Positions 5,237 to 8,608 of a DNA stretch of 64,000 nucleotides are shown one piece after another. Made by a program: the position numbers and the translations under genes. Source of the DNA: a virus. The notes beneath the pieces were generated by a model. That model saw only the letters and a program-made list of their open reading frames with translations, had not been told where the DNA came from and did not search any database. Position 1 is the first letter of the stretch, and the number at the start of each line of letters is the position of its first letter. The stretch is taken from positions 6,411-70,410 of IMG/VR virus record IMGVR_UViG_3300048848_000007; one strand, 5' to 3'.

Positions 5237-6373
5237 ATGAACACACTGCCCGTTATCGATGAGTTCGAGCTGACCCGAGACTTTGACCGAACCAAGTCAA
5301 AGCTCTTCATCGGCAGCAATGCTGCGTTCTTCGGCTCTATCCTGTGCTCCATGGAGTTCATCTGGATGCCGGAGATCCCGACTGCTTGCACGGACGGTGT
5401 GTTCCTCGGCTGGAATCCTTACTGGTTCCTGAAGCTCCCCAAGAACACCCGTGTCACCGTGCTCATGCACGAGATCTGGCACGTAGGCCGTCTGCACGGA
5501 TTACGTCGTGGCACTCGTGACCCTGAATACTGGAATTACGCCTGCGATATCTGGATCAACAACCAGCTGGAGAAGGAGAAGTATTCGTTCGAGACAGTCG
5601 AAGACTGCTGGAAGAATCCCTACTACCTCGGCTGGGTGGAGGAAGACATCTACGATGATCTGGTCAAAAACCAGATACCTCCGCCTCCCGGTGGAACATG
5701 GGGGATGGGTGACTGTGACCTGAAGGAACCAAACGGGGATACTCAGGCCAAGAACCTCAACACCGTGGTCAAGGCTCTGCACACGGCCAAGGCCAGTGGT
5801 GCAGGCAGTCTGCCGGGTGACACCGAGATCATCATCAGGAAATTCCTGGAGCCTGTGGTTCCGTGGAACATCCTGCTGCTGGGCTTCTTCAACGACCTGC
5901 TCGATGAAGACTACACATGGGCCAGACCTAATCGCAGACACTCCGATATCTACCTGCCATCCCGTTTCACGGATGACGGTCGGTTGGAGCACCTGTGCTA
6001 CTACCTCGATGTGTCTGGTTCGATCAGCCGTCAGGATGTGATCCGCTTCAACTCTGAAGTCAAACACATCTGGGAGACGTTCAAGCCCCTCAAGCTGACC
6101 ATGATCCTGTTCGATACAGAGATCCAAAAGACCATCCAGTTCACGGAAGGGGACTTGTTCAACGAGATCCAGGTGACTGCTGGGGGCGGTACGTCCTTCA
6201 TCTGTGTGCGTGAGCACATGATGGAGACTCGGCCGACAGCTGCCATCATCTTCACGGATCTGGACTGTACCCCCATGTGTCCGCTTGATTACGATGTGCC
6301 CGTCATCTGGGTGGCAACTCGTGCAACAGGCCGGACAGTCCCTTTTGGCAAACTCATTCACATCAGGAAGTAG
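5237..6373 (+). CDS. Metallopeptidase-like plus vWA domain protein (N4 gp25-like)
   Basis: HEIWH zinc motif; MIDAS-like DVSGS; GGGT; adjacent to the AAA ATPase. Confidence 0.88.
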   Translation: MNTLPVIDEFELTRDFDRTKSKLFIGSNAAFFGSILCSMEFIWMPEIPTACTDGVFLGWNPYWFLKLPKNTRVTVLMHEIWHVGRLHGLRRGTRDPEYWNYACDIWINNQLEKEKYSFETVEDCWKNPYYLGWVEEDIYDDLVKNQIPPPPGGTWGMGDCDLKEPNGDTQAKNLNTVVKALHTAKASGAGSLPGDTEIIIRKFLEPVVPWNILLLGFFNDLLDEDYTWARPNRRHSDIYLPSRFTDDGRLEHLCYYLDVSGSISRQDVIRFNSEVKHIWETFKPLKLTMILFDTEIQKTIQFTEGDLFNEIQVTAGGGTSFICVREHMMETRPTAAIIFTDLDCTPMCPLDYDVPVIWVATRATGRTVPFGKLIHIRK

Positions 6374-6376
6374 TAC

Positions 6377-6880
6377 ATGGTCATCAACGGCAAGACGCTA
6401 TACGAGCTGGCCCCAATCAAGAACATGATCGCTGGCAAGGACACCGCCCATGGCACCAGCTATGGGCTGGGTGAAGCTGGCTACGATATCCGCATCAAGC
6501 AAGAGATCCGGTTTAAGCCCCAGCATCTACGTAATGGCATCACCAAGTTCGTACACGAAGTAGACGGATGGGGTAACCCCGGACGCTTCTGTCTGGCCTC
6601 GGCCATCGAAGAATTCGAGATGCCGTACAACCTGACCGGCATCGTCCACGACAAGTCCACTTGGGCACGTCGTGGCCTGTCAGTCTTCAACACCGTCATC
6701 GAACCGGGCTGGTCCGGTTTCCTGACTCTGGAGCTGGTCTACCAAGGGGAAGGTGAACTCCTTATCCCTGCTGGTTCAGGCATCGCTCAGGTCATGTTCC
6801 ACGAGCTGTCGGACGAGGCGGCCTACAACGGCAAGTACCAGAACCAGAAAGACAAGCCAGTCCCTGCCAAGAAATCCTGA
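6377..6880 (+). CDS. dcd: dCTP deaminase (N4 gp26-like)
   Basis: AGYDIR, DKSTWARRGL, VIEPGWSGFLTLEL, IAQVMF, YNGKYQNQ motifs. Confidence 0.92.
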   Translation: MVINGKTLYELAPIKNMIAGKDTAHGTSYGLGEAGYDIRIKQEIRFKPQHLRNGITKFVHEVDGWGNPGRFCLASAIEEFEMPYNLTGIVHDKSTWARRGLSVFNTVIEPGWSGFLTLELVYQGEGELLIPAGSGIAQVMFHELSDEAAYNGKYQNQKDKPVPAKKS

Positions 6881-6958: not shown

Positions 6959-7171
6959 ATGGCATTTACCAAACTGAAATCTGGCGGTCAGCGTGTTCGT
7001 GTCGATCTGGCGAAGGTGGTTTACTTCACCGAGCTGGAAAGCGGCAGCACCTCGCTCAGCTTCATCAACGGCGACACTCTGGTCGTCGAAGAATCCTTCC
7101 AGACCGTCAGCAACCGTGCCAACGGTTCGGGCGAAGTGACCGCTGCTGTCTCGGTCGCTGAAGGCGCGTAA
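6959..7171 (+). CDS. Small hypothetical protein (FlbD-like beta pattern)
   Basis: GGAG Shine-Dalgarno; FTKL...VDLAKVVYF...TSLSFINGDTLVVEESF resembles the FlbD-like small-protein pattern. Confidence 0.6.
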   Translation: MAFTKLKSGGQRVRVDLAKVVYFTELESGSTSLSFINGDTLVVEESFQTVSNRANGSGEVTAAVSVAEGA

Positions 7172-7190: not shown

Positions 7191-7450
7191 GGTCACCGTA
7201 AGTGACCCCGATGCACCTGTGCTGATTCACAGGCTGCATTGGTCAGGTAGCAGAGCTGCTCGGAGCAATATCATTCACCCCATGTGTAAGCCCTGCAATG
7301 CGCAGGCTTGTGGTAAGTAAGCTCAGAGCTGAAATGGTGATCTATGGTTTGTGGTTCGATTCCACTCGCTGGCAGTCAGGGGGACGCCCTGTGCTGCTAC
7401 CTGAACCAATGCAGCTTTCCCAATGAGAGAACTCCGGTTCTCTCTTTTTT
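7191..7450 (+). ncRNA. Putative structured ncRNA with a long closing stem and a tRNA-like T-arm
   Basis: 7233-7253 pairs with 7394-7415 (21 bp, one bulge). Internal hairpins include GTGG-TTCGATT-CCAC (7351-7365). Ends in a terminator. No plausible + strand ORF. Confidence 0.6.
7425..7450 (+). terminator. Rho-independent terminator
   Basis: GAGAGAAC-TCCG-GTTCTCTC followed by T6. Confidence 0.85.
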
Positions 7451-7732
7451 ATCGAGCCGGTTGGGAATGGCTGACTAGCGAAGGCGAAGCCGGAGTCTGT
7501 CTGGCATTCACGACTGGCCGCTGCCGCAGGCGACGTTCAGCTGACCCACTGCGGTGTGCCATGAGATACATAGAAGGGATGAGTTTCACCCCTATGTAAA
7601 TCAATGACTTAGACAGGGGGGTTCGTTCATCTGGATGAACACACCCCTGTTCAAATCCGAGTGCTATATCAGCCTGTATGTGCGCTATGCTATTCATGCT
7701 GTTCACTATCTCACAGACGTAGAGACACCATC
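7451..7732. other. Putative plasmid-type origin/operator region upstream of rep
   Basis: Non-coding; imperfect inverted repeats at 7569-7596 and 7613-7650; sits directly upstream of a Rep homologue. Confidence 0.45.
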
Positions 7733-8224
7733 ATGAGCGACCAGAAACCTGTGCGGTATCACCAATCCCCGGTACGGGGTACATGGGTTCAGACTGAGCG
7801 TGCAGGCCATGAGGCATGGGCAGCACTCACTCAGGCAAGCCCCAAGGCTGCCCAGCTGATGCACGTGCTCGTTGCCAACATGGATGAGAAGGGTGCCTTG
7901 GTGACCAGTCACAAGGTCTTGGCAGAGCTGTGCAGCGTGTCGGTCATGACCATACGCCGTGCAGTCGATACCCTGACCAAGCTCAATTTCATCCAGACCA
8001 TTCGCATCGGCAGTGAACGGGGTGGTGCCTTGGCCTACATCGTCAACAGCCGTATCGCATGGGCGGACAAGCGAGCCAACATCCGCTACGCCAAATTCAG
8101 TGCCACCGTGCTGGTATCGTCTGAAGAACAGAACGTCCTCGACGGTCCCCCACTCCGTCAGATCCCCCGCATTCAGGTCGAAGAAGACCTGGAACAGACT
8201 CTTGAGTTAACCGCAGTGCAATAA
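7733..8224 (+). CDS. rep: Plasmid replication initiator protein, pBBR1 Rep-like (winged HTH)
   Basis: GTWVQTERAGHEAWAAL...LMHVLVANM...HTH...AYIVNSRIAW...FSATVLV...LRQIP parallels pBBR1 Rep as recalled (GHWVQTERKAHEAWAGL...AYVVNDRVAW...FSAAVVV...LRRIP). Confidence 0.82.
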   Translation: MSDQKPVRYHQSPVRGTWVQTERAGHEAWAALTQASPKAAQLMHVLVANMDEKGALVTSHKVLAELCSVSVMTIRRAVDTLTKLNFIQTIRIGSERGGALAYIVNSRIAWADKRANIRYAKFSATVLVSSEEQNVLDGPPLRQIPRIQVEEDLEQTLELTAVQ

Positions 8225-8232
8225 GGTGAGCC

Positions 8233-8421
8233 GTGAGTAATGAAGTAAGAGAAGTCTGGGAAGACGCCTACAGTCGTGGCGTCGTTGCCCGCAATGAAAA
8301 CCGCCCCAAGGTTCAACCCAAATCCTTTAACAAGAACTTCTATTACTGGCTCGCCGGATGGAATGACCGTGACATGGAATTGGAGAACCAAGGGATCAAC
8401 GAGGAATGCAGTAATGGTTGA
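8233..8421 (+). CDS. Rmf-like small protein
   Basis: AYSRG...P...WLAGW pattern parallels ribosome modulation factor (AYQRG...CP...WLGGW). Confidence 0.5.
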   Translation: MSNEVREVWEDAYSRGVVARNENRPKVQPKSFNKNFYYWLAGWNDRDMELENQGINEECSNG

Positions 8422-8608
8422 TACCCATGAAGTCTTGCAGTTCACCTATACCAACCATCGTGGCGAAACAGCGAAGCGTCGTGTGATGCCCGAGCGTATC
8501 TACTTCGGTACTACGCCTGATCATCCTCAACCTACTTGGTTGATGACGTCCTACTGCTTCGACCGTCAGGCGCAACGCACCTTCGATCTGAAGAAAATGG
8601 TGTTCTGA
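8414..8608 (+). CDS. Stand-alone WYL-domain protein (64 aa)
   Basis: FTYTNHRGETAKRRVMPERIYFG...WLMTSYCFDRQAQRTFDL follows the WYL-domain pattern; no HTH. Confidence 0.72.
   Translation: MVDTHEVLQFTYTNHRGETAKRRVMPERIYFGTTPDHPQPTWLMTSYCFDRQAQRTFDLKKMVF

Follow-up and report, generated by a model that had tools for sequence, protein, structure and literature searches.

Genome setting of the RNA element

The window analyzed here, 64,000 nucleotides of viral DNA (positions 6,411 to 70,410 of IMG/VR record IMGVR_UViG_3300048848_000007), carries on its + strand a structured RNA element at 7191-7450, to which a preliminary description of the sequence had drawn attention. The element sits between a 70-aa open reading frame (ORF; 6959-7171) and a terminator. 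It consists of a leader hairpin (7191-7207; 6 bp and a 5-nt loop, by direct reading), a closing stem of 21 pairs (7233-7253 with 7394-7415) with a single bulged A (7404 or 7405), and an enclosed fold, here called the cargo, that includes a tRNA-type T-arm; an intrinsic terminator-like hairpin with its U-run follows (7425-7452). We report that this RNA structure is real and conserved, and that the outer part of its stem belongs to a scaffold within which unrelated RNAs have been exchanged between phages. The stretch was found in one piece in one DNA sequencing run, possibly its source run.

The virus record itself is complete at 75.3 kb and carries direct terminal repeats. Because of its gene order (ATPase, DUF2201, dCTP deaminase, ThyX, rIIA), a match to N4 gp25 and a 3545-codon frame on the opposite strand, which by its size and synteny we take to encode the virion RNA polymerase, we assign the phage, on sequence grounds, to the N4-like phages; its closest isolate is Pseudomonas phage Arace01. 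A MoxR-type ATPase/vWA pair and a WYL protein are encoded near the RNA, the latter a stand-alone 64-aa WYL domain protein (PF13280, above cut-off; window 8414-8608). The T-arm of the element is the single + strand T-arm in the whole genome, and the number of tRNA genes in this phage genome is zero. Genes for RNase III, RNA ligase and reverse transcriptase (PF00078) gave no match in it; since the phage encodes neither RNase III nor RNA ligase, host enzymes would be needed for processing.

A rep gene follows the terminator, and the preliminary description had offered the RNA, among other roles, as a replication-control RNA for it. Both rep (7733-8224) and its origin belong to a Pseudomonas plasmid insert (7451-8224, + strand) that lies outside the RNA: from 7451 onward the sequence resembles Pseudomonas plasmids, across both origin and rep, with 67% protein identity to Pseudomonas fragi pAd12, and this rep is related to Rsu2 rep. 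No rep was found at any RNA-bearing homologue locus, nine of which extend 2-6 kb downstream, and the covariance model of the RNA (R1, below) finds no copy of it in the two rep plasmid loci tested. By sequence comparison, the replicon has been inserted 3' of the RNA's terminator, where relatives carry further RNAs. That the element is an antisense or structural control RNA for rep, which adjoins it in this genome only, is on these grounds highly improbable, and we have dropped that suggestion. The insert also contains an exact IHF consensus at 7599-7611. Short pieces of its origin and rep (window 7475-7501 and 7781-7800) recur in a second contig of the source run, 52 kb long and of low depth, which may be a plasmid from the same sample.

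The conserved fold and its homologues

Homologues were collected by blastn, one metagenome pattern scan and look-ups via neighbouring proteins, yielding 11 further full-length sequences and one partial sequence, 53-78% identical to the window. The carriers are phages Arace01, UCB24, Meara and CRC2 and the metagenomic loci L112, L140, L165, L366, L367, L368, L373 and L202, and in every case the homologue lies downstream of dCTP deaminase or the small ORF in an N4-like phage locus. The region of the window folds better than 200 of 200 dinucleotide shuffles (z = -3.6), and the 11 homologues gave z values of -2.1 to -6.1 against their shuffles; the + strand folds better than the - strand in 12 of 12 sequences. 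In the 12-sequence alignment, 95% of the cells of the consensus structure are paired, and 31 of its 46 pairs show change on both sides, with double changes present in every helix. None of 500 shuffles reaches this covariation, and slid controls are 31-44% paired versus 95%; these controls are not probabilities, the consensus having been derived in part from the same 12 related sequences. Covariation among homologues, set beforehand as the test of the proposed RNA, is strong.

The architecture runs from P1 through a three-way junction with P5 into P2, and from P2 into a second junction, from which the T-arm and the long P3 arm extend. P1 (7244-7253 with 7394-7403) has 10 bp, all cells paired and six pairs compensatory; the closing helix as a whole measures 20-21 bp, about two turns, with 98% of cells paired. 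P2 (7255-7266 with 7368-7376) is built of 5 + 4 bp around a 3-nt bulge and contains the invariant U7260, G7262 and G7263, while P5 (7379-7390) is a 4-bp hairpin with invariant G7383 and C7385 in its loop. The T-arm (7351-7365) has 4 bp and a canonical 7-nt T-loop, with all four Watson-Crick forms occurring at its second pair. The P3 domain (7270-7348; 79-117 nt across homologues) starts with a 5-bp helix, a 3-nt 3' bulge and a 5-6 bp helix, and opens into a junction that bears a stem with a conserved RUAAG-like internal loop (7286-7290) and hairpin P4, an A-rich linker and a variable hairpin. When each sequence was folded alone, this variable distal domain retained the RUAAG-like internal loop, the A-rich linker and two hairpins. 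Invariant bases are grouped at the P1/P2/P5 junction, the P2 bulge and the P5 loop. Thus, even where identity falls to 53%, seven helices, the canonical T-loop and invariant bases outside the helices are preserved in the cargo.

Most of the structure drawn in the preliminary description is borne out: the hairpins at 7191-7207, 7216-7233, 7288-7309 and 7377-7391, the T-arm, the 21-pair stem and, behind it, the terminator (hairpin 7425-7444 and U-run) all lie where it had placed them, and no cloverleaf or anticodon arm emerged, ARAGORN and Rfam being both negative. Besides that of hairpin 7216-7233 (below), two of its readings need amendment. The hairpin that it drew at 7257-7267 can form in the window sequence but is broken in several homologues; its bases are better placed in helix P2, paired with 7368-7376 (94-95% of cells paired, compensatory change in five of nine pairs). 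Its statement that CCA is missing holds for a free CCA end, the unpaired base that precedes the triplet not being conserved; the triplet itself is present inside the stem, at 7406-7408. A D-arm-like alternative was also considered (30 of 36 cells paired, one double change); in the homologue comparison both it and hairpin 7257-7267 are less well supported than P2. Beyond the known helices, the alignment contains no covarying stack indicative of a pseudoknot or tertiary pairing. A coding role was rejected, since the one open frame in the window copy has no counterpart conserved across homologues. Judged by the order of its parts, the RNA may descend from a tRNA whose anticodon arm was expanded and which gained an insertion behind the T-arm.

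Rfam searched with Infernal gave no match at gathering score, and none for the whole fold at E <= 10; searches of the window and of 16 related loci, and of two regions at E <= 10, returned nothing for this RNA or the other cargos, the matches being true tRNAs and a weak C4-like match only. The sole relevant sub-threshold match is the 15-nt T-arm (tmRNA, 10 bits). ARAGORN gave no match to the RNA, and literature searches returned no description of it or of the cargo fold. The fold of the cargo is new, in that it is absent from Rfam and the literature searched, and the earlier idea of a new noncoding RNA class gains support from this absence together with the strong covariation. SRP RNA, 6S RNA, hammerhead, group I/II intron, cobalamin and attC structures were considered and set aside, their cores being missing.

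Covariance model R1 scores the homologues at 115-155 bits and the best other match at 21 bits. Outside its training set it scores L140 at 131 bits and L202 at 64 bits, and matches above 60 bits are homologues only. Over 58 virus records, mostly N4-like, strong matches occur in the four known isolates only, the weak ones being other T-arm RNAs. Exact-pattern scans of viral contigs, among the matches listed, and of bacterial genomes added no further homologue, all pattern-scan matches having been filtered by models; on these scans, among the matches listed, the family looks confined to one N4-like group.

Exchange of cargos in a common scaffold

The closing stem's 10 outer pairs also occur with RNAs other than this one, hereafter the type I cargo; they belong to a separate scaffold of three segments. 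B (7233-7242) is the 5' arm of the outer stem and A1 (7406-7416) the 3' arm, whereas A0 (7208-7215) is an upstream copy of the 3' arm that can alternatively pair with B (7235-7242), probably as a co-transcriptional hairpin. The previously described hairpin 7216-7233 is present, but it forms only the upper, variable part of a longer hairpin (7208-7242), whose formation competes with that of the outer half of the closing stem. In the A0:B pairing 99% of cells are paired and three of eight pairs show compensatory change, and it is 3-10 kcal/mol weaker than B:A1 in 12 of 12 sequences. Because A0:B covaries yet is the weaker pairing, it fits a hairpin that would form early and later be displaced. 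At the place of the leader hairpin, a hairpin with a purine-rich loop of 5-6 nt is found in most relatives, whatever the cargo.

In relatives, the same A0/B/A1 scaffold encloses at least four other unrelated folded RNAs: type II in phages Zuri and Holyagarpour, type III in Ebordelon, L370 and L372, type IV in L375, and the tRNA-like type V in L004. Between locus L373 (type I) and locus L370 (type III), both flanks show 95-96% identity, which breaks off at the stem; similarly, L226 (type II) and L225 (type III) have flanks that are 92-94% identical, with the break at 5480/5598. Near-identical flanks that carry unrelated RNAs, with breaks at the stem, show that cargo has been exchanged between phages in this slot. 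The stem had been read as part of one RNA; it is real, and a content-exchange slot was not to be seen in a single sequence. All 23 of 23 cassettes are in the same register, two or three of them stand in tandem in L366 and L367, and the scaffold is retained even where the cargo differs or is reduced to 83 nt. The slot is, in relatives, the head of an array of tRNAs and tRNA-like RNAs, with true tRNAs after it in L367, L370, L373 and L227. In two scans for the scaffold elsewhere, the inspected matches were chance-like, and in one of them none of 118 had an extended inner stem. The dCTP deaminase tree is mostly without resolution, and no order of events was drawn from it.

Several features of these loci were noted in passing. 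The tandem cassettes (L366:440-960 and L367:4230-4620) hold two or three unrelated cargos with short palindromic hairpins between them, each palindrome being the 3' arm of one cassette plus the 5' arm of the next. Type II cargo is an unannotated structured family with two conserved blocks, no T-arm and no Rfam match (L224:5440-5604, L226, L004:4113-4278 and L366:678-815, and at second places in Zuri and Meara); type III cargo is a conserved, unannotated 104-nt RNA (L225:5646-5798, L370:3290-3440 and L372:3311-3462). The tRNA-like cargo at L004:3548-3774 has a 14-bp terminal stem, a D-arm, a T-arm and a greatly expanded anticodon arm. Further tRNA-like genes, missed by ARAGORN or Rfam, lie at approximately L001:4245-4335, L224:5625-5730, L374:3855-3945 and L229:1700-1800; a T-stem of 4 bp, a variable arm that is long and conserved, and unusual anticodon arms give them a resemblance to tRNA-Sec or allo-tRNAs. 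In phage Meara (L003:4068-4400), two tRNA-like genes with inserted or distorted anticodon arms are followed by a C4-like RNA, all unannotated in the record, and C4/CI-like antisense RNAs occur in lytic N4-like phages (L366:942-1051, L368, L367 and L375; 22.7 bits, sub-threshold in Rfam). A long-stem RNA around two T-arms is found at L228:375-530 (Littlefix) and L367:4471-4600, its second T-arm and the next bases matching the type I RNA of L165. Finally, a TerB-family gene lies 3' of the RNA array in several relatives (L224:5784-6221, L372:3798-4235 and L112 from 5365 onward); it is annotated in L372 and in Ebordelon/Holyagarpour, and similar sequence is present in Zuri and L112.

Predicted processing, function and relation to known RNAs

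In vivo RNase III sites of Escherichia coli preferentially have two G-C pairs between the cuts, with A-U pairs on either side (WSSW; PMC6212723), and the proximal box reads GC, AU/UA, AU, AU/UA (PMC1540722), its strand orientation being taken by us from the published text. The closing stem has two invariant G-C pairs flanked by U-A that fit the WSSW pattern, and its outer four pairs fit the proximal box, predicted in B at 7237-7240. Cuts placed after 7242 (in B) and after 7407 (in A1) agree with both rules on the outer side, and this placement explains the invariance of A7245-U7402, which falls at the mirror position of the cut register. Proximal box and WSSW core fit on the outer side in 11 of 12 type I units. 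Altogether, processing of the stem by RNase III is probable on this analysis. The predicted mature RNA is the type I cargo of 165 nt (7243-7407), with ends placed by the RNase III register and the swap breakpoints. Positions +88 and +197 of the lambda N leader, taken here as its RNase III sites, fall in the same UUGG/CCAA register. Known RNase III stems (lambda N leader, T7 R1.1, rRNA stalks) share with the present one a helix of about 21 bp, a proximal-box sequence and two central G-C pairs; here, by contrast, the enclosed RNA has a conserved fold and is exchanged between phages, and the lambda N leader lacks an upstream copy of the 3' arm such as the one that here competes for the 5' arm.

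The following course of events can be envisaged. During transcription B would pair first with A0; once the cargo has been synthesized, A1 would displace A0, and the 21-bp helix of B, P1 and A1 would form. Host RNase III would then cut this helix after 7242 and 7407 and free the cargo with paired, exonuclease-resistant ends, as a tertiary-folded and probably tRNA-derived RNA of about 165 nt with a T-arm on an acceptor-like P2, no anticodon and no free CCA. The cargo would accumulate during infection and occupy a host protein, most likely a defence protein, that recognizes tRNA-like or other structured RNA; as hosts change, the phage would swap cargos. Fold, conservation, independence from rep and cargo exchange are direct observations; RNase III processing is predicted from published rules, and trans action and the decoy role are proposals. 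A conserved fold that is predicted to be excised, is dispensable in close relatives and is exchanged at a fixed site points to an accessory trans-acting factor under changing selection, and phage tRNA regions are proven anti-defence loci (PMC11555353); for these reasons we tentatively favour, ahead of the other readings, a stable RNA released by host RNase III as an exchangeable trans decoy for a host protein, probably in anti-defence. The wider proposal is more doubtful, namely that N4-like phages possess a modular slot, with a clamp cut by host RNase III and swapped RNAs, whose cargo is a new class of anti-defence RNA acting by structural mimicry.

Several points weigh against this reading. 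The proximal box is just 4 bp long and real sites often depart from it (PMC5371410), and CRC2 carries a G-C antideterminant at outer position 2. Cargo types II and III lack a T-arm, so the slot as such does not imply tRNA mimicry, and type I cargo is absent from close relatives and so is dispensable or replaceable. Moreover, the published anti-defence tRNA needs its anticodon (PMC11555353), and the RNA here has none. The preliminary description had suggested a tRNA decoy against host anticodon nucleases; as there is no anticodon loop to cut, a decoy, if the RNA is one, would more likely be aimed at proteins that recognize its T-arm or its fold as a whole.

Next in our ranking, and unlikely, is that the scaffold alone matters, as a cis-acting RNase III site that punctuates and stabilizes the transcript, as in the lambda N leader, with the interior as folded filler. 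Its retention through changes and shrinkage of the cargo and the occurrence of the same stem motif in the lambda N leader would fit; yet the helices, T-loop and invariant unpaired bases that the cargo keeps exceed the needs of a filler, the terminator immediately 3' in this phage leaves little downstream to process, and several cargos stand in tandem in L366 and L367. We consider it rather improbable that the RNA is the cofactor or scaffold of a phage protein in a small ribonucleoprotein. Its partner could be, for example, the 70-aa protein, the WYL protein or the MoxR-type ATPase/vWA pair. In favour, the RNA keeps a fixed gene order with dCTP deaminase, DUF2201 and the ATPase, and the 70-aa protein adjoins it in several homologues; against, the same neighbours stand beside unrelated cargos (L004, L370, L224), and at several type I loci no small ORF was detected.

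Following this in rank, and also improbable, an aptamer in the P1/P2/P5 junction could serve as a small-molecule sponge, for example for a nucleotide immune signal. The clustering of invariant bases at the junction, P2 bulge and P5 loop recalls riboswitch aptamers, and the absence of an expression platform suits a sponge; against it, no Rfam riboswitch similarity was found, and a canonical tRNA T-arm suggests a protein or RNA partner. Ranked lower still, as a quite improbable reading, is a chargeable tRNA mimic in which A0 holds B and so frees a 3' N-CCA (7405-7408) on P1 as acceptor stem. A0:B is indeed conserved and covarying, an unpaired base plus CCA follows P1 in nine of 12 sequences, and the arm order recalls tRNA, but the helix is uninterrupted in L366, L367 and L373, tandem cassettes have UCA, the T-arm is 28 nt from P1 and not stacked on it, and B:A1 is more stable than A0:B in each of the 12.

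The function question is directly testable by cargo swap or deletion, because the cultured Pseudomonas putida phages Zuri, Holyagarpour, Ebordelon and Meara differ in the cargo of one slot and thus provide natural pairs. If the cargos are decoys, they would add a class of RNA counter-defence beyond tRNAs, RNA anti-CRISPRs and antitoxin mimics, and the scaffold could serve as a natural cassette to express stable RNAs. To our knowledge, no function has been assigned for 50 years to "extra" stable RNAs of phages such as T4 RNA C and RNA D.

Comparison with known classes places the RNA outside each of them. Its likeness to bacterial Y RNAs, raised in the preliminary description, survives as a loose analogy: no Ro60/TROVE gene (PF05731) was matched in the complete 75-kb genome, a Deinococcus control being detected, and the GNCGAAN0-1G motif near the 5' end is absent from the window RNA, chance matches occurring at non-homologous places in three of 12 sequences. 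YrlA (RF02553), which is present in some phages (PMC4201824), is alike in having a terminal stem and a tRNA-like module with a T-arm; the present RNA differs in lacking a D-arm and in that its acceptor-like helix does not form a closed hairpin placed between T- and D-arms. Neither the YrlA order of T-arm, acceptor hairpin and D-arm nor an Rfam match was found. With the tRNA-like domain of tmRNA it shares a topology of acceptor-like helix, long helix with variable domain, and T-arm, but it has no CCA on the acceptor-like helix, no D-loop, no tag reading frame, no pseudoknots and no GCCA-type acceptor end, is half the size, and is negative in ARAGORN. As in tRNAs and allo-tRNAs, a canonical T-loop sits on a paired stem; the T-arm is not stacked on an acceptor stem ending in NCCA, the CCA lying on P1, 28 nt away. 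Allo-tRNAs and irregular tRNA polycistrons form non-canonical tRNA-like arrays with 4-bp T-stems, some in phages (Mukai et al., PMC5389517), and the neighbours of the RNA in Arace01 and Zuri resemble them, whereas the RNA itself lacks the cloverleaf and acceptor end that allo-tRNAs keep. For a retron noncoding RNA, the cognate reverse transcriptase was not matched in the genome.

The nearest known kind is the unexplained stable RNAs of phage tRNA loci. T4 RNA C and RNA D (rnaC, rnaD; species 1 and 2) are small structured RNAs in the phage tRNA locus (PMC9697503), and placement in such a locus holds for the present RNA through the tRNAs of its relatives, its own genome having none. In RNA C, a T-arm is accompanied by an A-rich linker and a stem with a GUAAG internal loop, like the P3 domain here; its T-arm adjoins the 3' terminal helix, whereas the T-arm here lies two junctions inside. 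R1 found no match in the T4 genome, a local motif is all that the RNAs have in common, and no exchangeable scaffold is described for T4. A link between the loci is an RNA D-like hairpin right behind the type I element of phage CRC2 (L227:1695-1720), 16 nt long and identical to the 5' hairpin of T4 RNA D.
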